Shown here piece by piece: positions 3,609 through 51,969 of a stretch of 56,055 nt of DNA. The notes beneath the pieces were generated by a model that did no database searches, was not told the origin of the DNA, and saw only the letters and a program-made list of their open reading frames with translations. Source of the DNA: a virus (taxonomy: Duplodnaviria > Caudoviricetes); the IMG/VR virus record IMGVR_UViG_3300030107_004870, positions 1 through 56,055 of that record. One strand, given 5' to 3'. Both the position numbers and the translations under genes were made by a program. Position 1 is the stretch's first letter; each line of letters starts with the position of its first letter.

Positions 3609-3619
3609 CCCATTAAGAT

Positions 3620-5110: not shown

Positions 5111-5128
5111 GAACAAGATTTTAACATG

Positions 5129-5398: not shown

Positions 5399-5399
5399 A

Positions 5400-6156: not shown

Positions 6157-6166
6157 AGGAGGAGCC

Positions 6167-6737: not shown

Positions 6738-6770
6738 ATCTTTATATTTTTATATACAATGTACGACATT

Positions 6771-6935
6771 ATGGATGAAAATATACAAAATATTAAATAC
6801 CCAAAAGGCAGAAAAACTTTGGCTGTTGATGTAGACACTTATAATTTATTGCAAGACATTTGTAATAAACAAAGACGTTCAAAAATTGACCAATTAAAAA
6901 TATTAATTGAAAAAGCTCATAACGAACAAGTTTAA
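6771..6935 (+). CDS. Putative ribbon-helix-helix DNA-binding protein (54 aa)
   Basis: Manual ORF ...RKTLAVDVDTYNLLQDICNKQRRSKIDQLKILIE, a strand-helix-helix pattern. Confidence 0.55.
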   Translation: MDENIQNIKYPKGRKTLAVDVDTYNLLQDICNKQRRSKIDQLKILIEKAHNEQV

Positions 6936-6937
6936 TT

Positions 6938-7204
6938 ATGTTTGGTATTATAAAAAGAAAACCAAAAAATTTACCTGAGTCTTATGAGATAAAAGACCCG
7001 AAGGAAATTATTGATATATTTACTAAGCTAAACTTACATCATCAAGTAGCTTTACTTAGATTAATTTCAAGAAATATACTATTTGAAATTGATGATAAAA
7101 CTTTTATTGGTTTAGAGTTTGAATATGATGTGGATGGAGCTTTGATTAAAATTTCAAATAAGCTAGATTTTATTCCTTTAGACCAAACTTCCGATACCTT
7201 GTGA
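6938..7204 (+). CDS. Hypothetical protein
   Basis: ORF track; starts 2 nt after upstream stop. Confidence 0.65.
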   Translation: MFGIIKRKPKNLPESYEIKDPKEIIDIFTKLNLHHQVALLRLISRNILFEIDDKTFIGLEFEYDVDGALIKISNKLDFIPLDQTSDTL

Positions 7205-9424: not shown

Positions 9425-9430
9425 TTTTAA

Positions 9431-24589: not shown

Positions 24590-25524
24590 TAGCTTGCCTC
24601 TCTTTGTTGTATTTTTTGCTTTTGTTTAGCAACCTGTTTCAACCAATCTTCTTCAGACATGTTGTAAGGTTTCAACCCTAGGACACGCTCTTTTTCAGAC
24701 TTTGAAAAAGTTATTCCACTTTTGTTGCCTTGTGTTTTTTGCCTACTTCCTACAGAAGCAGAAGCGACTCTTTGCACAGTGGGTCTCACTTCTTTTTCCT
24801 CGGCATTTGTTTCATTCATTAAATCTGGATATACATTATACACCCTTTTATCTAATTCATTGTAATACTCATCTGAGTCAGCTTCAAAGCCCTCATTAAT
24901 AAGATTAATATGTGTAAAGTTTGCATATTGAGTAGCTGCTACATTATTGGTATCTGAGTCTACACCATACCAAGGATTTTTGCTTTTCCACAACAAAGCT
25001 TCTTCTGTAGGGACAACAACTTGTTGCCCTTCTGTTTGCTCAGGCTGAACTTGTTGTGTTTGTTGAACTTGTTCTTGTTGTATAGCCCTGTTTTTAGCCA
25101 ACCTTATTTGTTCTTTTTGTATTTGAATTTCGCCTTTTAAAGTATCTGCCTTAGAAATTAACTCAGCATCATTTGCTTCGTAAGCTTTTTTAAACAGCTC
25201 GTTAGCCTGTCTTTCTTTTGCTTCAACTGCTTGTTCTTCTGCACTTAAAACACTTGTATTAAGTTGCTGAGTTTGACTTTCTAAGTCTTTAATTCTTTGT
25301 TCTCTTTGTTGAGCAAGTTGTTCTGCTTGTTGAGCCCTAGTTTCTGCTTCTCTAGCTCTTGCATTTAACTTGTTAATTCTTTTTGATACGCCTTTAGTGT
25401 ATTCACTAAGTTCATCATCAGAAGAGATTTCTTGTTGTTTTTGCTCTTCTTCTATGACAGCATCATCAACAACTTCAATTTTTATTTCTTCTTCTTGTTC
25501 TATTTTGTTTTCTGTTTCGCTCAT
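24589..25524 (-). CDS. Putative capsid scaffolding protein
   Basis: Acidic coiled-coil between portal and capsid genes; W..KNPWY motif. Confidence 0.7.
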   Translation of the reverse strand: MSETENKIEQEEEIKIEVVDDAVIEEEQKQQEISSDDELSEYTKGVSKRINKLNARAREAETRAQQAEQLAQQREQRIKDLESQTQQLNTSVLSAEEQAVEAKERQANELFKKAYEANDAELISKADTLKGEIQIQKEQIRLAKNRAIQQEQVQQTQQVQPEQTEGQQVVVPTEEALLWKSKNPWYGVDSDTNNVAATQYANFTHINLINEGFEADSDEYYNELDKRVYNVYPDLMNETNAEEKEVRPTVQRVASASVGSRQKTQGNKSGITFSKSEKERVLGLKPYNMSEEDWLKQVAKQKQKIQQREAS

Positions 25525-25970
25525 TATAAACTCACTATATCATCTGGATTTAGAATTGTTGCAATGATTTCATCATCGTTAATAATTCTTACTTCCGCAC
25601 CATCTTCTAATTTAAACCTAGCTCCAGCATATCTTCCAATCAACACCCATTGACCTTCTTTACACCAAGGTTCGCCATACTTGCCCTGCTCTGAATAACA
25701 AAGAGGACCCATTTTTACAACATAAGCAACTACAGTAGCCAGACTTTCTCTGTCTACAGTTTCTTTTGTCATAATAATTCCACCCTTACTTTTGCCTTTA
25801 CCTCTGTAAGGTAAAACTAAAATTTTCCAACCTGTAGGAGTGGGCATTCTTTCGACCAAAGAAGCTTCCAGCTTTTCTGGGTCCAAGAATATTTCTTCTG
25901 GCTCCACATAAGCGGATTGAATTATATTCTTTTCTTCTTCTTTTTTTGCTGGCTCACTCATTTTTGTCAA
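25524..25970 (-). CDS. groES: Phage GroES-like co-chaperonin
   Basis: PTGWKILV..KSKGGII..RYAG..RIINDDEIIA. Confidence 0.85.
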   Translation of the reverse strand: MTKMSEPAKKEEEKNIIQSAYVEPEEIFLDPEKLEASLVERMPTPTGWKILVLPYRGKGKSKGGIIMTKETVDRESLATVVAYVVKMGPLCYSEQGKYGEPWCKEGQWVLIGRYAGARFKLEDGAEVRIINDDEIIATILNPDDIVSL

Positions 25971-26145: not shown

Positions 26146-26472
26146 TTATTTTTTCTTTTTTCTAGTAATTTTTGTTTTTTTTGTAGTTTTTTTACTGATA
26201 TTGGCAGGCTTTAAAACAACTTTTTTTGTATCAATTTGTTCTTCAATCTTTGACTCAATTTTTACTTCTTTTACAGGCTTTGGTTGAGTTTTTTCTACAA
26301 CTTTTTTGCCTGATATTCTTGCCATTTTTTTTGAAATTCTTTCAATACTTGCAATTTCTTTTGCTTTTTTAGCTGCTTCTGTTTTTTCTCTTTCAGCTAT
26401 TTCTTTTGCCCTTTCAAGTTTTTTATTTTTTCTTAACTCTGCAAGTTTTTCTTTTATATAAGATGTCGTCAT
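26146..26472 (-). CDS. Lys-rich hypothetical protein
   Basis: Overlaps portal stop; very basic. Confidence 0.55.
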   Translation of the reverse strand: MTTSYIKEKLAELRKNKKLERAKEIAEREKTEAAKKAKEIASIERISKKMARISGKKVVEKTQPKPVKEVKIESKIEEQIDTKKVVLKPANISKKTTKKTKITRKKKK

Positions 26473-28949
26473 GATTTCCTCATTTTAGCTTGTAATTCTG
26501 TAATTTTTAATTCAGCTTGTTGTTTCATTCTATCTATAGCTAATTGCAGTTTATCATCTGCTATAGCTTTTTGCACATCAATCCTTTGTTGTTGCAGCTG
26601 TGACTCAACCATTTTGTTTTCTTGATTTTGTTCAAGCTTGGTTTCAAATTGTTGTTGCTCCATATCAAGCTCTTTATCTTTTAAATCAAGTTCTTGTTTT
26701 CTGATTTCTACTAATGGGTCTCCAGATGGTTGCTGAATACTTGCTAAAAACTGTTGAGTTAGTTGAGCCATAATTGGAGAACTAATTTGGTCTAACATCA
26801 TTTGCATTTGTTGTTGTAAAGTCTTAGCTTCTTCTGGAGAAGATTGCTGCATAGCCATCTGCATTTGTTCAAACTGTTGTTGTAATTCTGGAGGAATTTG
26901 TTGTTGTGCTAACTGTGCTGACAAAAACTGCAAGTGTTGCATAACATGAGAAACTATTAAAGACTGAATACCTTGATTTTCTTGAACTGTTTTTAATAAA
27001 AACAAACTTTGATGAGCCGCTACATGTGCTTCATGATTTTGTTCCGGAAAAGCTTGAGCTGGCTGCCCTAATAATAAACTACTATTTTCTAATCCAGCAT
27101 CTACCGGCATAGGTGTCATATCTGGAGGTGGTTGTAGCAGGCTTTCAACATTATCTACTCCTAAAGCTGCATACATTCTTTTGTAAGCCTCATAAATACC
27201 TACAGGACCATGAACATCAGGATTGGTTGTGACCATTTGTAAAAGCTCTTGTGCCATTGTAATTCTTTGGCTTTGTGAAAATATATTAGGGTCAGATATA
27301 GGAACAATATCAATTCTATCGTCAAAGTCTGATAATTTAATTTGTCTTGGACCAGAACCTGTTTCAAAGTCATATTCTGGAGGCAAATATTCAGCAAATA
27401 CGCCCGCTAATAAACTAAACTCTAATCTTTGTGAGTAATGTAATCTCTTATGAATTGCAGACATTACTTTTGTACCTCTCTCTAACAAGGCAACTGTTGT
27501 GCCTACAGGCATAGCTTGGTTCATATCTCCTACGTTCATGTCTGAAATAGCAGCAAATCTTTTACCAGAGTCTACTAAAAGACCAAGCAGCTGCATCAAT
27601 ACATTACTAGGTTCTTTTATAGGAAGAGGTATTAAGTTTTCTCTAAGACTACCTCCGGTAGTGTCTATATCTCTAAACTCACCGGGCTGTAAAGGCTCTG
27701 CTTCATCTCTAATCCTCATGCCTCTAGCTTTAAAACCGGCTGGTAAATTAGCTAAAGTTCCTGCATCTATTAATTGTCTTAAAATAGATGTAGAAGCCTT
27801 AGATAAGCCACCAATCATGTGTGAAAGACCTAAGCCATAAAATCCTAATCCCGGTAAAAATTTATATTGTATGAAAAAATTAATTTTGTTTTTTAAAGGG
27901 TCATTAGGATTGTAATTTCTTCTTATAGATAAAACTTTGTAGGCATCTCTATCTATAGTGACTATGTAAGGAAGTTTAAGACCGGTTGGCTCGCCCATTT
28001 CGTCTACATCTTCAAAACCTTCTAAATCTAAAATTGTGTGAACTTCGTAAATTGTTCTGTTTCTATCCTCAGCATAACTTGGTTCTATACCTTGTATGTC
28101 ATCAACTTCTTTTTCAACTTCTGTTTGTTCTCCATATATATCGTCTGGTAAATCTATATTTGAATAAAAGCCGGAAAGTTGTTGTTTTTTAATTTCATTT
28201 TTTGACATGCTTATTGCATGCGTAATTCTTTCTGCACTTGTTAAATCAGCTGCTTCGTAAGGAACTATTAAATCCTCTGGAGGAACAAACTTAGATACAG
28301 CTCTATTTAAAACAAAATCAAAATAAACTTTTTTAAAAGCAGAGCCTGCAAGAGGCAAATAAAATAAAAGCTGGTCAAGTTCTGGGTCGTATTCTTTCAT
28401 TACATTCATGATGTAATAATTCATAAACTCTTTTACTCTGTCAGCTTGTGACTCAGTATCTGCGTTTCTTAGACCTAATATTTGTGTTTTAACAGGTCCT
28501 TTTGCAGGTAATAATTCTTTATATGCTTGAGCTTGAAATTGTGTGACAGCTTCTGCCAATATTGGATGGATTACTCCAGAGCTACCTTCAAAAGGTTGCG
28601 ACCTTGACTCGTCAAATTTCATTCCTAAATATTTAAGACCATCTGTATAGGTGTCTTCCCAATCTTTTCTTGACTCTAAATCATTTTTAATTGAACCAAT
28701 TAAATCTGTTGCTAATTTAGATAATATGTCGGAATTTAAAAAGTCTGCTAAATTAGCATTAAAATCAGTTTGCACAGTTTCTTCTTGTGCAAAAATTTCT
28801 TCATCTGCCAAGACTCCTTCTTCTGTCACAAGAATTTCAGCAGCTTCTTTAATAAGCTCTCCTCTTGGCTTATCTACTTCTACCGATGTAATGTTATTAG
28901 ACTCAATAACATTTAGGTCATCTTCTGTGCCTAGTTTTTTTTCAATCAT
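26469..28949 (-). CDS. Portal protein
   Basis: 826 aa after TerL; HPILAEA, GSAFKKVY, FLPGLGFYGLG, RQLIDAGTL; Gln-rich C-terminal barrel. Confidence 0.9.
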   Translation of the reverse strand: MIEKKLGTEDDLNVIESNNITSVEVDKPRGELIKEAAEILVTEEGVLADEEIFAQEETVQTDFNANLADFLNSDILSKLATDLIGSIKNDLESRKDWEDTYTDGLKYLGMKFDESRSQPFEGSSGVIHPILAEAVTQFQAQAYKELLPAKGPVKTQILGLRNADTESQADRVKEFMNYYIMNVMKEYDPELDQLLFYLPLAGSAFKKVYFDFVLNRAVSKFVPPEDLIVPYEAADLTSAERITHAISMSKNEIKKQQLSGFYSNIDLPDDIYGEQTEVEKEVDDIQGIEPSYAEDRNRTIYEVHTILDLEGFEDVDEMGEPTGLKLPYIVTIDRDAYKVLSIRRNYNPNDPLKNKINFFIQYKFLPGLGFYGLGLSHMIGGLSKASTSILRQLIDAGTLANLPAGFKARGMRIRDEAEPLQPGEFRDIDTTGGSLRENLIPLPIKEPSNVLMQLLGLLVDSGKRFAAISDMNVGDMNQAMPVGTTVALLERGTKVMSAIHKRLHYSQRLEFSLLAGVFAEYLPPEYDFETGSGPRQIKLSDFDDRIDIVPISDPNIFSQSQRITMAQELLQMVTTNPDVHGPVGIYEAYKRMYAALGVDNVESLLQPPPDMTPMPVDAGLENSSLLLGQPAQAFPEQNHEAHVAAHQSLFLLKTVQENQGIQSLIVSHVMQHLQFLSAQLAQQQIPPELQQQFEQMQMAMQQSSPEEAKTLQQQMQMMLDQISSPIMAQLTQQFLASIQQPSGDPLVEIRKQELDLKDKELDMEQQQFETKLEQNQENKMVESQLQQQRIDVQKAIADDKLQLAIDRMKQQAELKITELQAKMRKS

Positions 28950-29167: not shown

Positions 29168-30655
29168 TTAGTAGTATATCATTCTATCTTTTCTCAAGCC
29201 CTGCATTTCTTCTTGATAATCTTCATGCAAAGATACAAAGCCTCCTTGTCTAAATCTCATTAAAGCCATAGTAGAGCTATCGCAAAAATCATCATAGTCG
29301 CCAAAAGGAAAGGAAGCCATTTCTTCTATTACATCTTCTGCAAATTTTTCTTCTGGTGCCCAAACCATGCCAGATTCAAAAATAGGTGCAACGCTGTTCA
29401 TTCTGGCTATTTTGTCTTGTCCTTTGCTAGGAGAGTATGATGTGACAGGTATGCCCATCCTTCTAAGCTCTTGAGCTAAAGGCGTTCCGGAAGCTTTAGC
29501 TTCAATCAATACACAATCTGGTTCCCAATATTTATATTCTTCGTAGGCTTGTTTTTTTAACTCAGGAAAATCAACTCTAAATCTTTTTGCGTCAAGTAAA
29601 ATAATATTTGAAGAGCCATCATCTTCGCTTTCAAAAACTGCCCATGTAGTTATGGCACTATAGTCAGCAGTTTCTTTTTTTGAAAAAGCAGTATCATAAC
29701 TTTGTATTACATAGCTGTATGGCGGAACTCTTTCTCCATGCCATGTTCTCCACCACTCTCTTTTTACTATACTACCTTCTTCTGCTGTAGGATTTTGTAG
29801 CCATTGAGAGTTCCATTTGCTGATAGGCAGAGATGCTTTAACACCAAGTAATTCTTCTTTTTTCCAAAACTCTCCCCACAAAGGATTGTTTGTTTTAGGC
29901 ATTAAAGCTGGAAATTCAACTATATCCCATTGGTCAGCGTTTTCTTCTCCTTGTTTTTTTAAAAGTTTACCAACTAAATCTTTAGTGCTCCATCTGGTCA
30001 TAACTATAATAATAGTTCCGCCCGGCTGTAATCTTTGTCTTGGACCAGATGTGTACCAATCATAACAAGACTCCAAAGCTTTTGGAGACAAAGCATCTTG
30101 CTCAGAATGAGGGTCGTCAATTATTAATAAATCAGCACCACGACCTGTAATTGCTCCGCCAACACCAGCATAGAAAGCTTCGCCTTCTTGATTGGTTGTC
30201 CATCGACCAGCACTTTTATTATCAGCTTGCAAGCTGAGGTTAGGAAATATAAATTTGTAATCTTCGCTATCAATTAAGTTTCTTACTTTTCTGCCAAACC
30301 TTACAGCCAATTCTGCTGTGTGAGTACATTGTATTATTTTTAAACTGCCATTTAAGCCCATCAACCAAGCTGGTAAAAAAGTAGAAGCAAATTCTGACTT
30401 AGAGTGTCTTGGCGGTAAACAAACAATTAATCTTTTAAGTTTGCCCTGTGCAATTCTGTTAAATTTTTCTGCAATTATTTTGTGATGTTTGCCTTGTATA
30501 AAAGCATCACCCCACATGTGTTTTACAAATTTTAAAAAATCTTTTTGACAACCATCTTGTTTATCTATTTGTTCGTATCTTGATAAAAGAGTCATTGCCT
30601 CTTCTTTTTCTGAGGGAGATAAAATATCAAAGTCTTTAAACGATATATCTTTCAT
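29168..30655 (-). CDS. terL: Terminase large subunit
   Basis: Walker A-like PPRHSKS, Walker B LLIIDDP, nuclease SYDTA, IEAKASG and YDDFCD. Confidence 0.95.
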   Translation of the reverse strand: MKDISFKDFDILSPSEKEEAMTLLSRYEQIDKQDGCQKDFLKFVKHMWGDAFIQGKHHKIIAEKFNRIAQGKLKRLIVCLPPRHSKSEFASTFLPAWLMGLNGSLKIIQCTHTAELAVRFGRKVRNLIDSEDYKFIFPNLSLQADNKSAGRWTTNQEGEAFYAGVGGAITGRGADLLIIDDPHSEQDALSPKALESCYDWYTSGPRQRLQPGGTIIIVMTRWSTKDLVGKLLKKQGEENADQWDIVEFPALMPKTNNPLWGEFWKKEELLGVKASLPISKWNSQWLQNPTAEEGSIVKREWWRTWHGERVPPYSYVIQSYDTAFSKKETADYSAITTWAVFESEDDGSSNIILLDAKRFRVDFPELKKQAYEEYKYWEPDCVLIEAKASGTPLAQELRRMGIPVTSYSPSKGQDKIARMNSVAPIFESGMVWAPEEKFAEDVIEEMASFPFGDYDDFCDSSTMALMRFRQGGFVSLHEDYQEEMQGLRKDRMIYY

Positions 30656-32785: not shown

Positions 32786-34009
32786 CTATGCTGTTCTTTT
32801 CCACATATATACGACTATATAGGGTTGTAAGTTATTGTGAGCTGAACCACTACCTGTAGAACCTGACGCTCTAGTTCCTTGAGAAGTTGAACCAGAAGAA
32901 CCTAGTGGAAATGTTCCATTAACTCCAGAAGATACTTTAGTTTCTACTGTATGCGTGTGTGCTGGTAGTTCGCTTGTTGTAAGTGTATGAGTTTTAGCAC
33001 CACCTGTTTCTTCTGCGGTATCAAAATCTGAATCAGATGAATCAATACCTACAGGAACTTTACCTGCACCAAAAGCTGCCCATGTTCCAAAACCTAATAA
33101 AGTACCGGGATTAGTGTTGTTTGTTGCATTTATATAAATTGAGCCGACAGGATATACAGCAGCTAAAGTTGTTTTGGTATCTATTTGAGTTTGTATAGCA
33201 GAAGTCACACCATCTAAATATCCTAATTCTGTTGAAGTCACATCGCTAACTGAAACATCACCACTACCATCAGAAACCAAAGCTCTTGCTGTAGTAAGGT
33301 CAGCCATTTTACTAAAAGCAATAGCAGCACTTGCAGAAACGCTTGCATTTACCACAGCGTTGCTTGCTAATTGGTCTGCACCTACAGCATCATCTGCAAT
33401 CATAGCCTGTTCTACTGCATCATTAGCAATGGTTATGGCACCATTAGCTGCAATAGTAGCGTCTCCACTCATTGCCACAGGATTGTAGTTTGTGCCATCT
33501 GCTACTAAAACATGACCGCTTGTATTTGTGCCCATTTTTAAATCATCGCCTTCTATTGTTAAATCTCCAGATAAAGACAGGTTATTAAAAGCGTCATAAA
33601 CAACAGCACCAGAGCCTCCGCCATCAAGCATTAAAACTTTTGTGTTGCCATTTGCTACTGTAATAGATGCTCCAGAGCCCTGCGAAATTGTAATACTTTG
33701 ACTTCCAGACGTAGCATTTTCTATTATTATTATTTTTGAAATAGTGTTAGGAGCTATAGTCAAAGTTCTAGTAGCTGACAAGCTTACGCCAGAAGTCACT
33801 TTTACATAAATAGCTCTATATTTATCACTTGTGCCATCTGCTACAGTCGCTGTCACATCAGCATCGCTTGAAAACGTAGCTTCTGTTTGATATGAAAAAG
33901 CATCTGTTATAAGGCTTAAATTTGTATTTGTAGTGACACCCCAAGTACCAGATTGGTCTCCTGTGCCCATTTCATTTAGTCTTAAATTATTATTATATGT
34001 ACTTGCCAT
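32786..34009 (-). CDS. Tail fibre protein with collar/gp10-like C-terminus
   Basis: MASTY..GTWG.TTN N-terminus; YPVGSIY, GGAKTHTLT..ELPAH, HNNLQPYIVVYMWKRTA. Confidence 0.8.
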   Translation of the reverse strand: MASTYNNNLRLNEMGTGDQSGTWGVTTNTNLSLITDAFSYQTEATFSSDADVTATVADGTSDKYRAIYVKVTSGVSLSATRTLTIAPNTISKIIIIENATSGSQSITISQGSGASITVANGNTKVLMLDGGGSGAVVYDAFNNLSLSGDLTIEGDDLKMGTNTSGHVLVADGTNYNPVAMSGDATIAANGAITIANDAVEQAMIADDAVGADQLASNAVVNASVSASAAIAFSKMADLTTARALVSDGSGDVSVSDVTSTELGYLDGVTSAIQTQIDTKTTLAAVYPVGSIYINATNNTNPGTLLGFGTWAAFGAGKVPVGIDSSDSDFDTAEETGGAKTHTLTTSELPAHTHTVETKVSSGVNGTFPLGSSGSTSQGTRASGSTGSGSAHNNLQPYIVVYMWKRTA

Positions 34010-34043
34010 AATCTTTTATAAATCTATACCAGCATTATATACT

Positions 34044-35009
34044 TTATGCTACTTCTTCGTAAGCAGGATTTTGTGTTTCGTTTATGTCTGAGTAGTTAGG
34101 AGTCTGGCTTTCGTCTATGCTTGAATAGCCAGAAGACTGTGACTCATCAATATCCGCATAAGATGGCGATTGAGTTTCGTTTATTTCTGAAAAACTAGGG
34201 CTTTGACTTTCATCAATTTTTCCATAAACCAAAACATTTGCTAGTTCAACAGATGTTGAAACAGAGTCTGAGCTCACATTTGCTTTTCCAAGAATTACAA
34301 CATTGCCGGTAGCAAAAGTTGCTTCCAATCCAGAAACAGAAACTGTGTTTTGTGTTCTTACAGAAATATCTCCTTGTGTAAAACTTGCACCTTGACCAGA
34401 TACAGAAATGTCAGCCTTAGCATTAGTAGACACATCTCCTAATCCAGATGTTGCAGATACTCCGGAAACAGAAGTATTTGCTTTGGCTGCTGGTGTGATG
34501 CTTCCTACGCCAGATGTTATTGCCTGACCTGTCGGAGATATATTAGCTTTTCCAATTAAATTAAGGCTGCCCAACCCTGATGTAGCAGCAATTCCAGAAA
34601 CACTAGCATTTGCTTCTGCATCAATAGCAACAATAGAAACAGTTCCTACTCCAGAATTTAAACTTGGAGTGGAAGCAATAGCTTGAGCGTTTACAGCAGC
34701 TGTACCAATGCCACTTGTAGCAACTTGTGTTGCTGGCGTTATATTTGCTTTACCTGTAATAGAGCTTAAAGTTCCTAATGCAGATGTAGAAGCTTGTCCG
34801 GCTACAGACGTGTTGGCTTTTGCATTTGTTGTTATAGAGCCTGTGCCAGAAGTAGTGACTTGCGTTGCTGGTGTTATATTTGCTTTACCACTTGTAGAAA
34901 GCGAGCCTAAGCCAGAAGTTGTTGCAAGACCTGTGACACTTACACTAACACTAACAGAAGCATCTCCAGCTGAAAATGGAGCTTCTGAAAATGCACTTAT
35001 ACCAAACAT
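34044..35009 (-). CDS. Repetitive Ser/Thr/Gly-rich tail protein
   Basis: MFGISAFSEAPFS start; ~26-aa internal repeats; five C-terminal 11-aa I(D/N)E(S/T)Q repeats. Confidence 0.7.
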   Translation of the reverse strand: MFGISAFSEAPFSAGDASVSVSVSVTGLATTSGLGSLSTSGKANITPATQVTTSGTGSITTNAKANTSVAGQASTSALGTLSSITGKANITPATQVATSGIGTAAVNAQAIASTPSLNSGVGTVSIVAIDAEANASVSGIAATSGLGSLNLIGKANISPTGQAITSGVGSITPAAKANTSVSGVSATSGLGDVSTNAKADISVSGQGASFTQGDISVRTQNTVSVSGLEATFATGNVVILGKANVSSDSVSTSVELANVLVYGKIDESQSPSFSEINETQSPSYADIDESQSSGYSSIDESQTPNYSDINETQNPAYEEVA

Positions 35010-35088
35010 AATTAATTATAAAATTTTATTTTAAATTCTTTATATAATTTTTTTTTAAAACTTATAGCACCTAAGCTTAGAGTAGCTA

Positions 35089-35274
35089 TTATTTATTTCT
35101 AGAATGTTTACCATTCCCTTTGTTATTTCCTGAGTCGTATTGCGTTAATTCTTTGAAATAATATTTTCTTATAGTATTAACCTTGTACCAAAAAATATTC
35201 ATACCTCTAGGATTAGAAAGTTCTCCTATCATAATTACTATACAAGCTAGTAAAGGTATAAATATAAGTTCCAT
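35089..35274 (-). CDS. Small membrane protein
   Basis: N-terminal hydrophobic segment. Confidence 0.5.
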   Translation of the reverse strand: MELIFIPLLACIVIMIGELSNPRGMNIFWYKVNTIRKYYFKELTQYDSGNNKGNGKHSRNK

Positions 35275-35275
35275 T

Positions 35276-36586
35276 TTATTCTTCTATTGGTTTAAGTGGT
35301 TCAATTATTACTTTTCCATTTTCATCAGTCCAACTTGTATCAATCATGTGTTGGTCTTGTCTTTCACCAATTACCATCCAAGATACAGTTGCAGTTGATT
35401 CTGAATTTTGTGATTCAATGGTAAGTACATTACCTGAAATACTTCCTTTGACTGCATCCCAGCTTGATTCGTTTGAAGTAAAACATTGAACATCTGTATT
35501 TAAAGCTACAAAAGTTCCTTCAGTCATACCTGCTACAGTATCAATATTAATTGTTGCTGTACCATTTATTAAATCTACTTTACCTCTATAAATATTATCT
35601 GCTTGTGGACCTTCTACAAAAGAATGAATTAAATAATGTGTATCTTTTTTAGCTTCTAATGGATGGTCAATTTTAAATGACCCAGAACCTTTTGACAAAG
35701 AACCAGAAATACTAACATTTCCAGAATTATTTACAGTTAAACCACTTGAACCTGAATTACCTAAACAAATTGTGTTGTCTCCTGAAGCCGAACCTGCATT
35801 ACCATAAAGACCTTGTGTAGATATAGTTCCATTATTAGCTTTTACTTTAAGTTGGACCGGTACTGTATCGCCATTTCCATTAGCTTCAAATATTGATGCA
35901 ACTGAGCCTGTATGACCATCCACAGTCATTGGTTTATTGAATGTAGCAGCACCAGCTTCGGAACTATCTATAGTAAGTGCTGTAATACTTGAGCCACCAT
36001 CATTGACTTTAAAAAGCATATCGGCATCTGACCTTTCACTTTTTACAATAAAGTTTGTGCCATCATTTTCTAAAGAACCAAATTGTGTGCCATCATCTTG
36101 TAAATTTATATCTCCACCACCACAATCTAAAACAATATCTCCTGCAACATCAATAGTTAAATTGCCACTAGATAAATCTATTTCTGTACCATCAATAGTA
36201 ATGTTGTCTACAGTAATACCACCATCGACATCTAGTGTTCCCGGAAGTGTGACATTACCACTAGCATCTTCATGCACAGCTTTACTTGCAGGCATGGTAC
36301 AAAATACATCTTTAGTTCCTGAAGAAAAATTAACTGCGGAGTCTGAGTTAGAACTGCTTATGACTGTAGTTCTAGCCAATGTGTCTGGAGAAGCATCGGT
36401 CACTGTGCCTAAACCAACTTCAAATTCTGCTGCTGTTTGATGAGCGATTGCGTAGTAAGTAGTATTAGAATTACCAATTCCTGCTACAAAAGTTTCAAAG
36501 CCGGTTTCGGCTCCAGCTAAATTAACTGTGCCTGTTCCGGTTGTAGTAGTGGTTTCTTTTACTCTGTCGTTTAATACTAATGCCAT
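35276..36586 (-). CDS. Tail fibre/spike with C-terminal intramolecular chaperone-like domain
   Basis: MALVLNDRVKET..EVGLGT N-terminus; GSFKIDHPL..LIHSFVEGP..YRG C-terminus. Confidence 0.8.
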   Translation of the reverse strand: MALVLNDRVKETTTTTGTGTVNLAGAETGFETFVAGIGNSNTTYYAIAHQTAAEFEVGLGTVTDASPDTLARTTVISSSNSDSAVNFSSGTKDVFCTMPASKAVHEDASGNVTLPGTLDVDGGITVDNITIDGTEIDLSSGNLTIDVAGDIVLDCGGGDINLQDDGTQFGSLENDGTNFIVKSERSDADMLFKVNDGGSSITALTIDSSEAGAATFNKPMTVDGHTGSVASIFEANGNGDTVPVQLKVKANNGTISTQGLYGNAGSASGDNTICLGNSGSSGLTVNNSGNVSISGSLSKGSGSFKIDHPLEAKKDTHYLIHSFVEGPQADNIYRGKVDLINGTATINIDTVAGMTEGTFVALNTDVQCFTSNESSWDAVKGSISGNVLTIESQNSESTATVSWMVIGERQDQHMIDTSWTDENGKVIIEPLKPIEE

Positions 36587-36628
36587 AGTCTTGTGTAAAG
36601 TTTATGCTTTGTATTATATACTTAATTA

Positions 36629-36880
36629 ATGGAGTACATAATTGAAAAGTTTTTTGAGTGGGAAAATGGTCCTGCTGTGGTAGCAGTCAATGAGCAAGAA
36701 GATTATATGGTGGGTTTTTTTATACCTTACGATAGTGTCACTGACGATTGGGTTGTTGCTGATGGTGCTCAACTTTATGATTTTTATATAGATGGTATGC
36801 AGCTTACTGAGGGAGAATTTGAAGCTGAATTTGGCATTATTGGGGAAGATTTGCCTGAGCTACCTATGGACAAAGTTTAG
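36629..36880 (+). CDS. Highly acidic small protein (candidate immunity/antitoxin or DNA mimic)
   Basis: 21 Asp/Glu vs 2 Lys in 83 aa; ATG 6 nt after TATACT, no SD; stop overlaps stop of convergent effector gene. Confidence 0.65.
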   Translation: MEYIIEKFFEWENGPAVVAVNEQEDYMVGFFIPYDSVTDDWVVADGAQLYDFYIDGMQLTEGEFEAEFGIIGEDLPELPMDKV

Positions 36881-38700
36881 TATTTTTCAAAATAATTTTT
36901 CCAAGAAGGATGTATTTTTTCTTCTGCTTCGCCAAATCTTTTTTGCATAATTTCTACTAATTCATTTAAAATTTTTCTATCAGAAGCTTTTACTCTTTTT
37001 TGACCTTTTACTTTTGTTTGAAGTTCTCTCCAAGCTTCATAAAAATGATGATTCTCTTCTGAGGCTTTTTGCATTTGGCTAGGACCTATAGAAATTTCTG
37101 CAACTATACTTTTTCCAGCATTCGGTCCTTTTTTAGCTTCAAAAACTATATTAAGTTTTCTATCTATGTAGCCATGTGGATTTTTTTGAAAGCCAGAGTC
37201 TATAACTTTATAATTTTTATGCAGCTCTTGAACAATTAAATCCGCAGAAGCAGTGTCTTCCGCAATAACTCTGGTTCTTAATAAATCTGTAATTCTGCCA
37301 ATATTATCATTGTATTTTTGACCAGCCTTTTCAACCATTCTAGGAATTTGTTTAATTACTCCCTTTTGTATTTCTGGATATTCTACATCAAATTCAAGTT
37401 TTATTGACTCGCCCGGATTGACTGTGTATTCAAAAAGCTCATCCTTTTTGCCTTTGTAGTTTTCAAAATATTTATCAGTGACTCTTTTTCCTACAGCTTC
37501 TATTTCATCTACATATTCTTTTGCCATGCTGCCAGCAATTTTTCTTGCTTCGTTTGCAACTAACTCTACATCGTCTATAGTAGAAAATAATCCAGCATTG
37601 TTATTTCGAGTAAAAACATTTGCTACTTCATATTCAAGTTTTGGGCTTATTTGTCTAAGAGGTGGCTCAAAAGTTGGGTTGCCGATTTTGGGTTGTACTT
37701 TTGTTGCGTCTTCAACTCTTTTTTGATTTTTTAGTTTTTTTCTTTCAAAGTCATAAATTTTAAAATTGTCTTTTGAATTAAAAACTTTAACCGGAACTTC
37801 ATCTACATTGCCTCTGGAGCTTAATGCTTCAAAAGAAGATTTTCCACCAAGCAAGGTATAAGTATCATCTGGATTTTTTAAAACTTCTAAAGGCTGTCTA
37901 GGGTTGGCAGATACTCCTTTGTAAGTAAAACCTTCCTCTCCAATTTTTAAAAGTCTATCTGCTAAGTTAATTCTGTCTGGGTCATTTGACATTATAGGCT
38001 TGCCACCAACTCCAACATCAAACTTAATTTTGCTTAAAGGTAAATTAAAATCAGAGCCTTTTGTATCTATACCGGAAACGTTTGGTTGTGGTTTTGAGTC
38101 TACGTTGCCAATTTTTCCTGCTTTATAGGCTCTTCTTAGCATAGGTATCATGGTTAATGCTTCAAAAGGAGCTTTAATTAATGTGCCTGCGGCTGAAACT
38201 ATAGGAGCAGCTGGACCTGATAAACCTATTGCTCCAAGCAATGCAGTATCAAATAAACTGCCTATGCCTTGAAAAGTAGCATCAAGATAATTACCTTCAC
38301 GCAAATTTTCTGGCAAAGATGGATATTTTTCTGCATCTACCATGTATTGTGGTAAATCAGCCATTGTGACAGTTTTATCTGGAAATACAGCCATTTGTCC
38401 TGCTGTATCTGGATAACTAGCACCCGGAAGAACATTTAGCCCTATATAAGTTTTTTGTGGACCGGTCATATTATACAAAGCGGATGCTACATCTGTTGTA
38501 ATGTCTGTTGCTGCTTTTTGTTTTTGAAAATTTTGCATAGCTCTGTCCATTTGGAATTGAGCTAAATTACCAAAAAAAGATGGCTTTTCTTGGTAGTTTT
38601 CTTTTTTTATTTCAGCTGATGGTTTTATTTCAGTTGGTGGAGCAAAAGCTGGGCTTGTACTAAGAAAAGGCTGTTCTGCAAATATGTCTCGTTCTGCCAT
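36877..38700 (-). CDS. Multidomain effector: low-complexity/hydrophobic N-terminus, ParB-like domain, C-terminal RelA/SpoT-like nucleotidyltransferase
   Basis: PLEV..DDTYTLLGG...VPVKV (ParB/Srx pattern); K..RMVEK..Y..ITDLLRTR..GYIDRKLNI..AEISI..HHFYE (RelA_SpoT pattern). Confidence 0.7.
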   Translation of the reverse strand: MAERDIFAEQPFLSTSPAFAPPTEIKPSAEIKKENYQEKPSFFGNLAQFQMDRAMQNFQKQKAATDITTDVASALYNMTGPQKTYIGLNVLPGASYPDTAGQMAVFPDKTVTMADLPQYMVDAEKYPSLPENLREGNYLDATFQGIGSLFDTALLGAIGLSGPAAPIVSAAGTLIKAPFEALTMIPMLRRAYKAGKIGNVDSKPQPNVSGIDTKGSDFNLPLSKIKFDVGVGGKPIMSNDPDRINLADRLLKIGEEGFTYKGVSANPRQPLEVLKNPDDTYTLLGGKSSFEALSSRGNVDEVPVKVFNSKDNFKIYDFERKKLKNQKRVEDATKVQPKIGNPTFEPPLRQISPKLEYEVANVFTRNNNAGLFSTIDDVELVANEARKIAGSMAKEYVDEIEAVGKRVTDKYFENYKGKKDELFEYTVNPGESIKLEFDVEYPEIQKGVIKQIPRMVEKAGQKYNDNIGRITDLLRTRVIAEDTASADLIVQELHKNYKVIDSGFQKNPHGYIDRKLNIVFEAKKGPNAGKSIVAEISIGPSQMQKASEENHHFYEAWRELQTKVKGQKRVKASDRKILNELVEIMQKRFGEAEEKIHPSWKNYFEKY

Positions 38701-38715
38701 GTGGCATTATAACAA

Positions 38716-39513
38716 TTAATGTAAGCCTTGTACTTTTCTGTTTAAGATAGCTTTTACTCTGTGATTAGGAAAGCTGCCTTTGTATTGCGGAAAATATTCT
38801 TCAAGCTGCTTGGCTATTTTTCTGTAGCCTAAGCCTCTGTCTCTTAGTTTGTAAATAACTTCCAATACTTTTTGTTCTTCTTCGTTTGGTATAAGTTTCA
38901 TTCTTCTTTTAATTCTGTTTCCGGACTTAACTTTTTCTTCTACCTTGTCATAACCAAAAGGAGTAGAGCCACCAATGGAATAGCCTTTAGGTGCCCAAGC
39001 TAATTTGCCTTCTTTGAATTTGTCTACAGTAGAGCCATGTTCTATTTCTGCTACTGCTGATAAAACCATAACCATAATCTTATTAACCATCTCATTCATA
39101 TCAAACTTAGAGTGCAAGCTCGACTTGTTTTTTTTCTTAGGATAAGAAATTGGCATGTCGCCAAATTGCTCACAAAGATAATAAGTTATTCCGGTCTCTT
39201 CAAAAATAGGTATGGTTTGCAATAAATCTCCAGAGCTTCTTGATAATCTATCAAGCCTAGTTGAAACAATAATGTCGTGCTCATCCATTACATCAGTAAG
39301 TTCTCTTGAGCCTTTTCTTTCGGTTATTGGTACAGTGCCTGATACTCCAGCATCAATAAAAAACTTATCAACTTGTTTGTTAAATTTATTCATAACAAAC
39401 TCATTGATTAATTGTTTTTGTGTATCTATAGAAATACCATTTACTGCTTGCTCTGTAGTAGAAACTCTTACATAGCCATAAATGTTGTTTATTTGTTTAT
39501 TAGGACCAATCAT
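38716..39513 (-). CDS. Serine recombinase (resolvase domain + short recombinase-type C-terminus)
   Basis: YGYVRVST catalytic Ser, DAGVSG, RLDRLSR, GGSTPFGY. Confidence 0.92.
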   Translation of the reverse strand: MIGPNKQINNIYGYVRVSTTEQAVNGISIDTQKQLINEFVMNKFNKQVDKFFIDAGVSGTVPITERKGSRELTDVMDEHDIIVSTRLDRLSRSSGDLLQTIPIFEETGITYYLCEQFGDMPISYPKKKNKSSLHSKFDMNEMVNKIMVMVLSAVAEIEHGSTVDKFKEGKLAWAPKGYSIGGSTPFGYDKVEEKVKSGNRIKRRMKLIPNEEEQKVLEVIYKLRDRGLGYRKIAKQLEEYFPQYKGSFPNHRVKAILNRKVQGLH

Positions 39514-47353: not shown

Positions 47354-48028
47354 TTAATCTTCGTATAGATTATCAAAAGTTATGGCTGGGTCAAGATAAC
47401 TTTCATGTTCTTCTGCTGAGTGTGTCCATTGAGAAGGTTTAAAGTCTGGAGCTCCATCGCCTGTGACCCATAAGGCAGGACTAGTCGCTCTTACTCTATT
47501 ATTTGGTAGAGCTACAAAATTGCCTTTCCATTCGCAATCTTCTGTTATGTAAAGCACATGAGACTGTTTATGTTGTGCACTATCGTCAGCAATGTCTGAG
47601 TCAGTATAATCAACAGTAAACAAATATCTACCTTTAAAAAATTCGCCATCTAGTTTGCATAGCCAAGGTGATGAGCTTACTCTATCCAAAACAACTACAC
47701 TGTGGTTTCTTGACTCGCAATCCCAAGGTTGAGCTATATGGTCTTCCATTGGTTTTGGGAAGTCATCCATTGGTATATCTGCAACTAGAGCTTGTATTGG
47801 CATTCTTGCCCACATAGCTCCGCCATGAATATTTGGCTCGTTGTTATCTTCACAATCTGACTCACAACCGGTAAAAACTACTTGAAAAGATAAAGACCTA
47901 TCTGGAATTGTATTTACTGCTATTGCTAAAGCATGTATATACTCATCATGATATTTTTCGTGATTGTGAGTAAATTCCCTGCGTACCCAACATTTAAAAT
48001 GCGGGATATTACTTATTAAGTATGCCAC
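47354..48028 (-). CDS. Conserved hypothetical phage protein
   Basis: GGAMWARMPI, QPWDC, YLFTVDY, QHKQSH, ALPNNR. Confidence 0.8.
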   Translation of the reverse strand: MAYLISNIPHFKCWVRREFTHNHEKYHDEYIHALAIAVNTIPDRSLSFQVVFTGCESDCEDNNEPNIHGGAMWARMPIQALVADIPMDDFPKPMEDHIAQPWDCESRNHSVVVLDRVSSSPWLCKLDGEFFKGRYLFTVDYTDSDIADDSAQHKQSHVLYITEDCEWKGNFVALPNNRVRATSPALWVTGDGAPDFKPSQWTHSAEEHESYLDPAITFDNLYED

Positions 48029-49266: not shown

Positions 49267-51969
49267 TTAAGCTAATCCAGCAATTCCTTTAAATTGCTCT
49301 GGAACACTATAGCTAGATAATAAATCATCTAGTTCTGTTTTTTTAGGGTCAAATTCTGCATCACTTCTTCTGATATTTTTAGGGTCAAAAATGACTGTTT
49401 CATCGCCAACCTTTATGCCATCGTAGCCGGCTTCGATTGCTTTATTGGTTAATTTTTCTGGTCCTACGCCACCAAATCTAACAAATTGGTCTAAATGAAA
49501 AAGAGTATTTTGCATGGGAAATATAGATGATATTCCTTGTGACATTTGAGGCGTGTGTTGTGCACTAAAAATTAAACTTTCTTTTAAATCTTCTATTGCA
49601 TCTTCTTTTGTTAAAGGAAAAGGTCTTTCTGGTATGCCTCTAACAGGGCTGTCAAAAATTTCTCCTTTAATTGCTGGGTGCGGTACCCTTGCCATAAATC
49701 CTTCTGTGTCATCATAATTTTTTGCTTTTATAAACTTTACATTTTTTTCAATGTAGTCATCAATTTTATCTAAAGATGCTAAACCTTGTTTTGTTGGCTC
49801 ATCTAAAGCTCCTATTTTGTCTAGTTTAGCAGCCCAAGATTTGAATTTTTCAGTTGTATCTAACGATGTAGGTGTTAAGTCTAATAGCTTGCCTCTAGTA
49901 AAATATTCTTCAACTTTCGGTCCATAATAACTTGCTTCTCCCGGTGTTCTTGCAAAATAATGACCTCTACCAAAAAAACCTTCGTCTAAGTTAGTTCCTA
50001 TAAATCTGTCATCAAATTTTTTTAAATCTTCATAAGTTCCATGATAAACAGGCTTATCAACTCGGAAACCTAGTTTCTCTGCTCTTTCTAGTTTTGGGTT
50101 TTTTTTTATAACATCTTCTACAGTATCTGCTGCTTTAATAATTCCACCAAGTTTTTTACTTTTAACGCCTAAAGTAGCTTTTAATGTTTTTGGTTGCTTT
50201 TTAGGGTCGTTGTAAGTTTTAGCTGTGACTTTATCGTAAACCGGATGTTTTTTTCCTCTTACGCTAATTTCGCCAACTTGTTCTCCTTTGATAACTTCTC
50301 CTTTAAGTGTAGGTTTAAGTCTAGGCTCTGATTTGCTTTGATATTTTTTAAGTTCTACGCCCTCTGGAAAATCAGTTTTTAGCGTATAAATATGCTTGCC
50401 TCCTGTTTCTACAGATATTATTGGAAAGCTGCCAGCAGGATTAGGGTCATAACCTTCCGGAACTTTTGTCCACTCCCAACCTCTTTGTTTTTTAAAAAGG
50501 TTTGTTTTAATTATCTTACCATCTGCGGATGGTAATTCATCATAGGTTTGTGAAGATACTCTAAATTGTGCTTTGCCATCAGGACCAATACTAATTTGAC
50601 CTGTTGCAGGCTTAGTACCAGAAATGTCTGCACCTGTGCCAACATCAATAAAAGCTCCTTCTTTGCCTTCATCCATTAGTCTTTGTGGTTTAGGAAATAC
50701 TTGCCTGTCTAAAAATAATCCAGAAAGAGATGTCAAACCTCTTGGCTTTGTTTCTTTGCCGACAATTTGTCCATAAGTTTTGTACATGTCGTCAAGCTGT
50801 TGTTTTGCATCAACGAGCTCTGGAACATCTTGTATTTTTCTTTTGCCTTGAAAATATTCTCTCAACACATTGTCTGTATAACCACCTGTTGTAGGGTCAT
50901 AACTTTGCAAAGTAAATCTTTTATCTCCTTTGCCTAGTCCTAATTCTTCAAAAGTTCTTTTTTTTGATTGGATGGCTCTTTTTAGAATACCTTCTGGTGT
51001 ACTGCCTTTTTCAAACTGACCGAGAGCTCCTAAAAATACTTTTGGTCTACTTACTCTTTTATCGTCAAAAAAGTTTTTTGAAAGCTTTGCGTCATAGCCC
51101 ATATCTAAATCTACAGGGTTTACTCTTGGATTGTTGTAAATATACTTTTCGTTAAAAGGAACTTTATAAACAGAACTAGGAGGTATATCTGTAAGGTCTA
51201 CTAAAACTTCTCCTTCTGTTAAGCCAGCATCAACTATGTAATCTACATCTTTTCTTTGTCTTGTACGACTTGGCACTTGTTTTAGCAAAGATGGTACAAA
51301 AGCCTGTACTTTTTCTAAGGGAACATCGTATCTGTAAACAGATGCTGGTCGTTTTAAGGTTTTGCCGAAATTAGGAGAGTTGATGCCTGCTGCCATTAGT
51401 TTCATGTCTTGACCAATAGCCATAACAGGGTCTAATCTTAAAGAAGTAGACCTTATGCCTTTTTCTGGAACAAATTCTTTGTCCTCTGCAATGTTTAAAA
51501 CTCGATATAAAGATAAAGTGCCATCAGGATTAATTTCATTTTTTAATTCATCTAAAGATAATTGCCTTAGCTCAGGTCTGTTTTCTACTATTTCATCTAT
51601 ACCTGTAAATCTAGCAAACTCATCTCCTCCTTTTTTTCCACCGATGCCTTTGATATGTGCAAAAAGTTTTTCTGAGTCTTCTTTTGTTAATTTTTTTACT
51701 TCCTTTACTGCTTCTGCTGCTTTTACCAAGCCACCAAATTTCATTTCTGGCACTTCTGCATTTGTTTTGGTTGTTTTTTCATCCATATCCATCAAGATAC
51801 CTGCTGCCAAAGGCACAGGAATAGCAAATCTTTCTGCAATAGAGATAATTCTAGGGTCTAAAATCACATAATTGTTTTTTTCTCCATCTGTGTATCTAAT
51901 TCCTTTTTGGTCTTTGACAAGACCACCAACTTTATATTGCGGAATAGAAAAAATATCGACATCAGACAT
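49267..51969 (-). CDS. Polyvalent protein with two ADP-ribosyltransferase-like domains
   Basis: R-S-E ART pattern LYR..STS..EGEV; ART-PolyVal pattern YHGT..GRGHYF..GYDGI..ETVIFDP..I; N-terminal ART remnant GIRY.DG..NYVILD. Confidence 0.75.
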   Translation of the reverse strand: MSDVDIFSIPQYKVGGLVKDQKGIRYTDGEKNNYVILDPRIISIAERFAIPVPLAAGILMDMDEKTTKTNAEVPEMKFGGLVKAAEAVKEVKKLTKEDSEKLFAHIKGIGGKKGGDEFARFTGIDEIVENRPELRQLSLDELKNEINPDGTLSLYRVLNIAEDKEFVPEKGIRSTSLRLDPVMAIGQDMKLMAAGINSPNFGKTLKRPASVYRYDVPLEKVQAFVPSLLKQVPSRTRQRKDVDYIVDAGLTEGEVLVDLTDIPPSSVYKVPFNEKYIYNNPRVNPVDLDMGYDAKLSKNFFDDKRVSRPKVFLGALGQFEKGSTPEGILKRAIQSKKRTFEELGLGKGDKRFTLQSYDPTTGGYTDNVLREYFQGKRKIQDVPELVDAKQQLDDMYKTYGQIVGKETKPRGLTSLSGLFLDRQVFPKPQRLMDEGKEGAFIDVGTGADISGTKPATGQISIGPDGKAQFRVSSQTYDELPSADGKIIKTNLFKKQRGWEWTKVPEGYDPNPAGSFPIISVETGGKHIYTLKTDFPEGVELKKYQSKSEPRLKPTLKGEVIKGEQVGEISVRGKKHPVYDKVTAKTYNDPKKQPKTLKATLGVKSKKLGGIIKAADTVEDVIKKNPKLERAEKLGFRVDKPVYHGTYEDLKKFDDRFIGTNLDEGFFGRGHYFARTPGEASYYGPKVEEYFTRGKLLDLTPTSLDTTEKFKSWAAKLDKIGALDEPTKQGLASLDKIDDYIEKNVKFIKAKNYDDTEGFMARVPHPAIKGEIFDSPVRGIPERPFPLTKEDAIEDLKESLIFSAQHTPQMSQGISSIFPMQNTLFHLDQFVRFGGVGPEKLTNKAIEAGYDGIKVGDETVIFDPKNIRRSDAEFDPKKTELDDLLSSYSVPEQFKGIAGLA

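Follow-up and report, generated by a model that had tools for sequence, protein, structure and literature searches.

Does a long phage protein that resembles the alarmone synthetases act together with the small acidic protein encoded tail to tail with it, and, if so, as an enzyme together with its own inhibitor? This question is raised by a locus in the IMG/VR virus record IMGVR_UViG_3300030107_004870, the whole of which (56,055 bases; completeness rating 100%, linear ends) constitutes the window analyzed here. A preliminary description of this DNA had pointed out an open reading frame (ORF) of 607 amino acids (aa) and a convergent, 25% acidic ORF of 83 aa whose stop codons overlap. Both were found as described: the TAA at 36877-36879 (-) and the TAG at 36878-36880 (+) lie within 4 nucleotides (nt) common to the two genes, and the small protein contains 21 acidic and 2 basic residues out of 83. 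As argued below, the pair is, somewhat more probably than not, an effector of the toxSAS type with a dedicated protein inhibitor, set within the architecture of phage polyvalent proteins. The theme of RelA/SpoT-type phage toxins is already known; what is new here is an unannotated family of partner proteins and its conserved antisense layout. The features in question are as follows.

36877..38700 (-), effector gene, 607 aa (ORF), with an N-terminal module, a ParB/Srx-like domain and a small alarmone synthetase (SAS)/Tas1-like putative pyrophosphokinase domain
38065..38532 (-), N-terminal shared module, aa ~57-212, helical, low confidence (profile positions ~40-195 matched separately)
37723..38064 (-), predicted ParB/Srx-fold domain, aa 213-326, with GGKSS replacing the GERR/GCHR-type motif (VIA and Foldseek)
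36883..37578 (-), predicted SAS/toxSAS-fold domain, aa 375-606 (VIA, Foldseek and PDB profile search)
36629..36880 (+), partner protein, 83 aa, acidic, beta-beta-beta-alpha-beta-alpha; candidate inhibitor or immunity protein (ORF)
36877..36880, 4-nt overlap of the convergent ORFs, stop codons included (read from the sequence)
36587-36628, 42-bp spacer from the start of the small ORF to the start of a divergent tail-fibre-like gene (- strand), holding the motif TTTGTATTATA

Fold and catalytic residues of the C-terminal domain

The 607-aa protein was found to have nine close homologues, and the profile derived from them retrieved 290 proteins at E ≤ 1e-3 from 1.84 billion representative proteins, three parts of the profile being matched separately. 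An AlphaFold2 model built on 25 sequences showed a predicted local distance difference test value (pLDDT) of ~90 for aa 210-607 and low confidence for aa 1-205. In this model, the C-terminal part displayed the complete synthetase domain, a five-stranded sheet framed by helices. Structural comparison with VIA gave RelQ (5ded_H) as the leading match, with a Z of 13.6, a root-mean-square deviation (rmsd) of 3.4 and an alignment of 180 of its 194 residues with model aa 379-602, together with CapRel (7ztb_B, Z 11.9) and Tas1 (6ox6_A, Z 10.5). The top Foldseek matches were likewise small alarmone synthetases (E 4.8e-6, probability 1.00), Tas1 standing at rank 14. In the sequence-profile search of the PDB with alignment A3, which comprises 25 sequences 24-88% identical to the window protein, the best solved chain was Tas1 (E 1.2e-6, 31 bits), and the RelQ-type synthetases came behind it (E 3.8e-4 to 5.7e-4). 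The order of the nearest relatives therefore flips with the method, the profile favoring Tas1 and the fold favoring RelQ (Z 13.6 versus 10.5).

The Pfam family RelA_SpoT (PF04607) matched aa 449-552 of the window protein over profile positions 3-105 of 113, with 18.7 bits (E 0.0022) against a cut-off of 27 bits. Matches at E ≤ 1 were obtained in 22 of the 25 family members. The C-terminal part is also found in other proteins, with lengths of up to 3,735 aa; among 51 of these that were scanned, 14 matched RelA_SpoT at E ≤ 1e-3 and only two exceeded the cut-off (P0037 with 29.2 bits, P0072 with 29.1 bits), while two carried LPD38 and three carried ddrB-ParB. Pfam, PHROG and NCBIfam returned nothing else for the 607-aa protein.

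Ten residues are invariant in alignment A3, namely K450, K458, K462, D472, R475, D501, D513, R514, K515 and E535. In HMMER alignments with RelQ and Tas1, the Mg-binding Asp corresponds to D472 and the catalytic Glu to E535, and the H551..Y motif of the family falls on the H..Y motif of the SAS enzymes, H551 coinciding with the conserved His. The Mg-binding Asp, the catalytic Glu and the basic triphosphate-binding helix (K450, K458 and K462) are thus all represented. The preliminary description had read a C-terminal RelA/SpoT pattern with AEISI in place of the usual motif and had made its proposal depend on a nucleotidyltransferase fold; AEISI indeed occupies aa 534-538 (AEISIGP, aa 534-540), retaining the Glu and replacing the Gln of ExQ by Ser, and lies within a predicted SAS fold (aa 375-606, Z 13.6) whose catalytic Asp and Glu are conserved. 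The first basic residue of the RxK motif of the synthetases is absent in the family. From the predicted fold, the profile nearest to Tas1 and the invariant catalytic residues, we conclude that the domain is probably an active enzyme of the toxSAS/Apk kind, a pyrophosphokinase whose catalytic residues are preserved.

Apart from this, a short motif, F/K-A/x-x-G-G-x-V, occurs just past the synthetase-like domain in many of the A3 relatives and in several copies in the 788-aa (5186-7549, -) and 860-aa (2325-4907, -) proteins of the high-GC contig L051; it may be a processing or assembly signal.

Linkage of the partner gene to the synthetase-like domain

Co-occurrence across phages had been named in the preliminary description as a check of the pair, and the linkage is far stronger than is visible from one genome. 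A scan of IMG/VR starting from the large protein yielded 48 loci, and a profile of the small protein found a partner homologue in every one of them (48/48, E 1e-9 to 1e-44), located without exception 3′ of the synthetase-like ORF, on the other strand. The same arrangement was found in the distant contig L051, where a 74-aa partner homologue is convergent with the 788-aa protein ending in the same domain. In the reverse search, a degenerate DNA motif of the small protein matched 65 loci, six of which were chance matches with neither gene; a true partner homologue is present in the remaining 59. On the strand facing it, 55 of these encode an SAS-like domain, and in four (L083, L094, L106 and L107) the contig ends on the side where that domain would be expected. 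Wherever a related locus could be assessed, the partner co-occurs with the synthetase-like domain, and always on the opposite strand. Counted by hand from the search tables, the family comprises 77 contigs besides the window, or at least 78 viral genomes or contigs with it. The large proteins vary in length from 411 to more than 1,164 aa, and in many of them the similarity to the query is confined to aa ~447-607; since they often have just the C-terminal domain in common with the window protein, the partner tracks this domain and not the rest.

The distance between the two stop codons was variable. Of the 48 loci, two have a gap of 1-2 nt, 17 overlap by 3-49 nt and two are separated by 1,350 nt, and in the remaining 27 the large ORF runs antisense for 276-321 nt through the whole small gene. 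As the genes lie on opposite strands in 48/48 and 55/55 assessable loci, the pair does not show the co-transcription from one promoter that characterizes type II toxin–antitoxin modules; with the 3′ end of the partner gene facing the 3′ end of the effector gene, the two are not co-transcribed.

Two departures from the usual arrangement were observed. In a GC-rich subgroup (L047/L048, L053/L105 and L107), the partner gene, again on the opposite strand, lies 1,350 nt past a 1,118-aa effector ORF, the interval holding a 469-aa ORF without a known family, and the partner carries a C-terminal extension of ~15 aa. In four contigs of ~60 kb (L067, L068, L069 and L076), the synthetase-like domain belongs to a protein of more than 1,164 aa that continues for ~800 aa on the C-terminal side of it and in which no other Pfam domain was found, and the partner gene abuts the 3′ end of the ORF, not the domain.

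The partner protein and its predicted binding

The small ORF is a real protein-coding gene. Its homologues of the same length (79-83 aa) are 64-90% identical, and its differences between the window and L002, a 52%-identical relative, are distributed over the codon positions as 26/19/45, a third-position excess in a region with no overlapping frame to confound it. The AlphaFold2 model of the protein reached a pLDDT of 91.8 and a predicted template-modeling score of 0.82. No family was assigned to it by Pfam, PHROG or NCBIfam; Foldseek found nothing in the PDB at E ≤ 1e-3 for the model, and the best hit of a PDB sequence search with alignment A4 was an unrelated chain with E 0.55. No fused or longer partner forms were found, which is weak evidence. 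The promoter that the preliminary description had attributed to the small gene was not confirmed, as a sigma-70 scan flagged no promoter-like site upstream of 36629. Only the AT-rich motif TTTGTATTATA, directly upstream of the ATG and reading TATAAT on the opposite strand, is common to the window and L002.

Complex prediction, which the preliminary description had also proposed, was performed with aa 370-607 and the partner, both as alignments. The result was graded as 'weak support', with a median score of 0.60 (runs 0.60, 0.68 and 0.00) against 0.00 for the best control; the runs agreed in at least 2% of contacts, and the pLDDT of the partner was at least 75. The mark thereby reached was attained by 116 of 157 solved complexes and by two of 215 mismatched pairs, while scores of 0.60 or under were obtained for only 18 of those 157 complexes and for both mismatches that passed. 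The model thus weakly supports direct binding of the partner to the synthetase domain.

As to the function of such binding, enzymes of the toxSAS group that make (pp)pApp are described as being neutralized by Tis1-like domains that occlude the acceptor site (PMC11782079), and the phage Apk2 toxins as being neutralized by IapK at the acceptor site and also by the hydrolase Aph1 (PMC12226406). By analogy with these systems, and mainly from the linkage, with direct evidence that is weak, the 83-aa protein is most likely a dedicated binding inhibitor, that is, an immunity protein or antitoxin.

The antisense-overlap clade

The loci in which the large ORF traverses the entire small gene (L003-L028 and L030, e.g., L003:5051-5348 and L005:6089-6392) form one large clade. 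The antisense extension of the large ORF constitutes a Ser/Pro-rich tail, and public gene calls give the long form (alignment A3). Its motifs PNxFSNS and TAGPxSQEKY are mirror images of motifs of the small protein. Of 33 distinct sequences, 22 keep the antisense frame open, whereas 11, the window included, interrupt it with 2-5 stops. As synonymous shuffles keep the frame open with a probability of 0.11-1.0 per sequence, openness alone is no proof of coding, and wobble analysis cannot tell which frame is coding because the third codon positions of the two frames coincide. Meanwhile, the small frame was better conserved in 114 of 136 pairs (BLOSUM62 per site, 2.84 versus 2.18), and thus the small gene is the primary coding frame. 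In this clade, the effector and partner genes may be double-coding over ~300 nt.

These comparisons also bear on the view that the 83-aa ORF is no gene at all but just a spacer that happens to be open in the antisense direction, or a by-product of the large gene and its C-terminal extension. Such a view could draw on the passage of the large ORF through the entire small ORF in 27 of the 48 loci, on the long public calls and on the mirrored motifs. It is disfavored, and very improbable, given that the small frame is intact in all 48+1 loci and among the 65 motif-derived loci in 59, that the antisense frame is interrupted in 11 of 33 distinct sequences and is the less conserved one, and that the partner is modeled with a pLDDT of 91.8 and shows a third-position excess where no overlap exists.

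The convergent overlap might itself be a control device, acting by transcription collision or through complementary 3′ ends and, in this one clade, by true double coding, an idea that we regard as rather unlikely. The inhibitor would then be produced early or in lysogeny and the enzyme late for loading into the virion, at mutually exclusive times, and the Ser/Pro-rich tail of the effector would be read antisense from its own inhibitor gene. If this were true, the architecture would be a previously undescribed one for toxin and immunity genes, widespread in abundant marine phages; in any case, the read-through clade provides a natural test case for antisense overlapping genes.

The ParB/Srx-like domain and the N-terminal module

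The middle of the effector, aa 213-326, is predicted by structural modeling to have the ParB/Srx fold with a changed nucleotide-binding motif. With VIA, it matched Noc (7ol9_A, Z 8.5, 82 aligned), ParB (7o0n_A, Z 8.4, 90 aligned), sulfiredoxin (Z 7.2-7.8) and free serine kinase (Z 7.8), and KorB, SerK and SbnI also matched; all these values (Z 7.2-8.5, 78-97 aligned) lie near the grey zone of the tool at ~8, although many independent members of the superfamily match this same stretch of the model. Foldseek retrieved the CTP-bound ParB 7bnr_A at rank 49 (E 9e-4). The nucleotide-binding motif is GERRxR in ParB and GCHR in sulfiredoxin. In agreement with the preliminary description, which had noted a degenerate ParB/Srx domain with GGKSS, this arginine-rich motif of the superfamily is absent and LGGKS(S/T) stands in its place, being LLGGKSS at aa 283-289 in the window protein. 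G286 and S288 are invariant in eight sequences 30-55% identical to the first, and GGKS is invariant in alignment A1. No ParB-type Pfam match was obtained in the 607-aa protein or its family members, ddrB-ParB in the 607-aa protein included, and a PDB sequence search with alignment A1 gave nothing relevant.

The N-terminal part, which the preliminary description had likened to an ejection protein, contains a moderately hydrophobic Gly/Ala-rich stretch at aa ~141-190 (Kyte–Doolittle 19-residue maximum, 1.55). Among 39 scanned proteins that share this module, Zeta_toxin was found in four, ART-PolyVal in seven (three above the cut-off) and PBECR5 in two. Because it is common to proteins with other toxin-type heads, we infer that the module serves in handling, packaging or delivery. 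Such a combination of one common module with exchangeable conflict domains is the syntax of phage polyvalent proteins. No virion-protein family was found over the N-terminal module in a PHROG scan of 17 proteins sharing it or the C-terminal domain. The leads that a language model gave for this part all scored below 0.9 (PT-TG 0.82, P22 gp16 0.79 and LPD22 0.76) and were discarded, none being confirmed by a hidden Markov model (HMM).

Comparison with known systems

The best solved sequence relative of the C-terminal domain is Tas1 (Apk1), the (p)ppApp-synthetase effector of the type VI secretion system of Pseudomonas aeruginosa, solved with its immunity protein Tis1 (PDB 6OX6). In alignment, Tas1 and the window domain share the stretches YxGDxxxIxDxxR and H..YE.WR, and both systems include a small single-domain partner protein. 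They differ in the delivery module, which in the window phage would comprise the N-terminal module and the ParB/Srx domain and in Tas1 is an N-terminus linked to type VI secretion. Unlike Tis1, the window partner shows no detectable sequence likeness to Tis1_ImmP, and its gene is convergent or antisense.

The Apk2 MuF toxins of temperate phages resemble the window protein in being multi-domain phage proteins with a C-terminal RelA/SpoT-type pyrophosphokinase and an adjacent small cognate binder (PMC12226406). There, iapK and aph1 follow apk2 (PMC12226406), whereas every locus of the window family has the partner gene on the other strand; moreover, the window protein has a predicted ParB/Srx domain and no MuF domain, and its genome, searched for an Aph1-type hydrolase, yielded none. 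The toxSAS modules (FaRel, FaRel2, PhRel, PhRel2 and CapRel), which have been linked to phages and phage defense (PMC11782079), have the toxSYNTH fold in common with the window domain, and each has a small structured partner that neutralizes it. They are short proteins in bicistronic or fused form, whereas the window protein is a long multi-domain protein encoded in a virion gene block with a convergent partner. The housekeeping synthetases RelQ and RelP (SAS1/SAS2) are the best fold matches of the domain, C-terminal helices included (Z 13.4-13.6), and have the same Mg-binding Asp and catalytic Glu at an identity of just 13-17%; compared with them, the window domain lacks the first basic residue of RxK, has Ser for the Gln of ExQ and is phage-borne, fused and accompanied by a partner protein.

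RelA/SpoT and DdrB-like ParB have been listed as domains restricted to phage-type polyvalent proteins (PMC5512222; Iyer, Burroughs, Anand, de Souza, and Aravind, 2017). The window protein conforms to this type in carrying at least two conflict-type domains on one chain in a phage with portal and terminase, and relatives of its C-terminal domain are embedded in proteins 1,000-3,700 aa long that contain LPD38 or ddrB-ParB, as in polyvalent proteins. It is small for the type, with 607 aa, two recognizable domains and a ParB-like part without a Pfam ddrB-ParB match. The preliminary description had called both the convergent layout and the ParB fusion unusual. The former is atypical when compared with known co-directional pairs, but within this family convergence is a conserved hallmark; the latter is less unusual than supposed, since a fusion of ParB-like and RelA/SpoT domains in presumably packaged phage proteins has already been described for polyvalent proteins (PMC5512222). 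The term 'immunity protein' is absent from the main text of that report, and an obligatory partner gene therefore appears to lie outside the description given there (PMC5512222).

Proposed mechanism and alternative explanations

In the reading that we favor, the C-terminal domain would use ATP to pyrophosphorylate a purine nucleotide at its 3′ position. Since no solved chain is closer to it in sequence than Tas1, (p)ppApp would be the likeliest product, with (p)ppGpp or a modified tRNA 3′ end as alternatives; in each case host metabolism or translation would be shut down. The 83-aa protein would bind this domain in the manner of Tis1/IapK-type proteins, which occupy the acceptor site of (p)ppApp synthetases. 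As its gene is not co-transcribed with the effector, it is presumably expressed on a schedule of its own. Phage toxins of the RelA/SpoT type had been described as MuF fusions in temperate phages and in defense modules; the present family extends their range to uncultured, mostly marine phages with kinship to pelagiphage-type podoviruses. Should the enzyme be injected and produce (p)ppApp or a similar nucleotide, it would offer abundant ocean phages a direct route to reset the energy and nucleotide metabolism of the host. The pair is also well suited to studying how a phage withstands a nucleotide-depleting enzyme of its own.

Several observations weigh against this reading. Regarding the enzyme, the window protein falls short of the RelA_SpoT cut-off (18.7 versus 27 bits), and the canonical ExQ(I)RT motif is replaced by ExS. 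Exported Tas1-like enzymes differ in product, some making (p)ppGpp, and thus the product cannot be read from likeness to Tas1 (PMC12691689). Neither the (p)ppApp hydrolase HD_4 nor MazG was found in the window genome. Regarding packaging, the 607-aa protein matches no PHROG virion family, its N-terminus is poorly modeled and nothing in it indicates packaging, and the MuF/SPP1 gp7 head-morphogenesis domain gave no Pfam or PHROG match in it and none in 25 family members (E ≤ 1). Regarding the inhibitor, the complex score was graded weak with one of three runs at 0.00, and the pass could reflect memory of the solved Tas1-Tis1 complex. On the side of the favored reading, Tis1 (6ox6_B), the immunity protein of Tas1, was ranked second of 48,161 chains for the partner model, with a Z of 4.1, an rmsd of 4.8 and 62 residues aligned, and a language-model search of the partner placed a Tis1_ImmP cluster at rank 13 with a score of 0.75. 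This likeness is faint, the Z value being within the noise range of the tool (the top match was the unrelated MalF, Z 4.5), and the Tis1_ImmP HMM (PF24154) matched none of 34 partner homologues and nothing in the genome at E ≤ 10. In addition, known toxin–immunity and toxin–antitoxin pairs are co-directional as a rule, so that a convergent inhibitor gene would not have been predicted.

The main rival, to which we assign a rather low probability, is that the pair is a toxSAS-type defense module expressed early or in lysogeny for abortive infection or superinfection exclusion, the enzyme being kept in the cell under the restraint of the small protein and freed by a competing phage. It gains from the AT-rich clade, where the effector gene heads the leftward gene block directly after a serine recombinase/integrase, a point that also counts against an injected effector. 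This recombinase (~262-271 aa; PHROG integrase/DNA invertase) precedes the effector gene in the window, L001, L003, L005, L015 and L019, that is, in every locus of the clade examined, and a slot next to the integrase is typical of prophage morons expressed in lysogeny. A mycobacteriophage RelA/SpoT-like gene with an adjacent inhibitor reportedly defends lysogens. Furthermore, toxSAS toxin–antitoxin modules are known phage-defense systems (PMC11782079), and CapRel matched the fold with Z 11.9. A defense module of this kind is harder to reconcile with the fusion of the synthetase domain to large N-terminal modules common to ART, PBECR and Zeta polyvalent proteins, with the location of the gene between TerL and portal in the GC-rich clade and with a pair that is not a co-transcribed bicistron. 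A search of 185,579 species genomes of bacteria and archaea with patterns from alignment A5, to which its sensitivity was limited, retrieved 35 stretches, none of them a relative; this gives limited support against a common prophage state.

Less probable again is the idea that the 83-aa protein serves the synthetase-like domain as a dedicated chaperone, a packaging adaptor or an activating subunit. The strict linkage and the weak binding signal would be compatible with an obligate partner of any kind, the sequence searches related the protein to no known immunity family, and the convergent layout is atypical for antitoxins. The characterized stand-alone partners of toxSAS/Apk enzymes are, however, described as inhibitors or product hydrolases (PMC11782079; PMC12226406), and the partner is small, acidic and compact like many immunity proteins, with Tis1 weakly among its nearest folds.

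The phage genome and the gene neighborhood

The window has a G+C content of ~35%. The closest TerL proteins are those of phage 023Pt_psg01 (61% identity) and of the Pelagibacter phages HTVC027P (58%) and HTVC023P (55%), and with these identities the phage appears to be a relative of pelagiphage-type podoviruses. A tblastn search of 50,697 GenBank phage records with the 607-aa protein and two partner proteins gave no match. PHROG also named a major head protein, endolysin, spanins, a primase/helicase and further replication genes in the window. Other features of the genome are listed here.

29168-30655, TerL (PHROG)
26469-28949, portal (PHROG)
32786-36586, tail-fibre-like genes (PHROG)
38716-39513 (-), serine recombinase/integrase gene directly upstream of the effector gene (Pfam Resolvase, 4e-20; PHROG integrase, 3e-39)
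25524-25970 (-), GroES-like co-chaperonin gene inside the head gene block (PHROG name)
4385-5116 (-), 2-oxoglutarate-Fe(II) oxygenase-like gene (2OG-Fe(II); PHROG name)
47354-48028 (-), ferredoxin-family gene (PHROG name)

The gene order is recombinase, effector, and tail fibre or spike in the AT-rich clade (the window and five loci examined), and TerL, effector, portal in the GC-rich clade (L037 and L048), L051 having an 860-aa gene in between. In both clades, the effector and partner genes sit inside virion gene modules, and this context, together with the shared N-terminal module, is what speaks for a delivery by the virion.

The upstream serine recombinase suggested an invertible segment, an idea that was rejected, since the inverted repeat in question was no better than others and the layout recurs in the GC-rich clade, where no recombinase is present. 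Among the inverted repeats that touch the small ORF, the best spans 23 nt with 83% complementarity (36406-36428 and 36814-36836), many pairs in the region being equally good. It pairs the EFEAEFG-coding part of the small ORF with the EFEVGLG-coding part of the tail-fibre-like neighbor, probably by chance.

Finally, large ORFs of 748, 476, 394, 559 and 900 aa at 7178-13705 (-) and 49267-51969 (-) had no PHROG match at E ≤ 1e-5; the first four of them (748, 476, 394 and 559 aa) adjoin virion genes and may encode internal or tail proteins.

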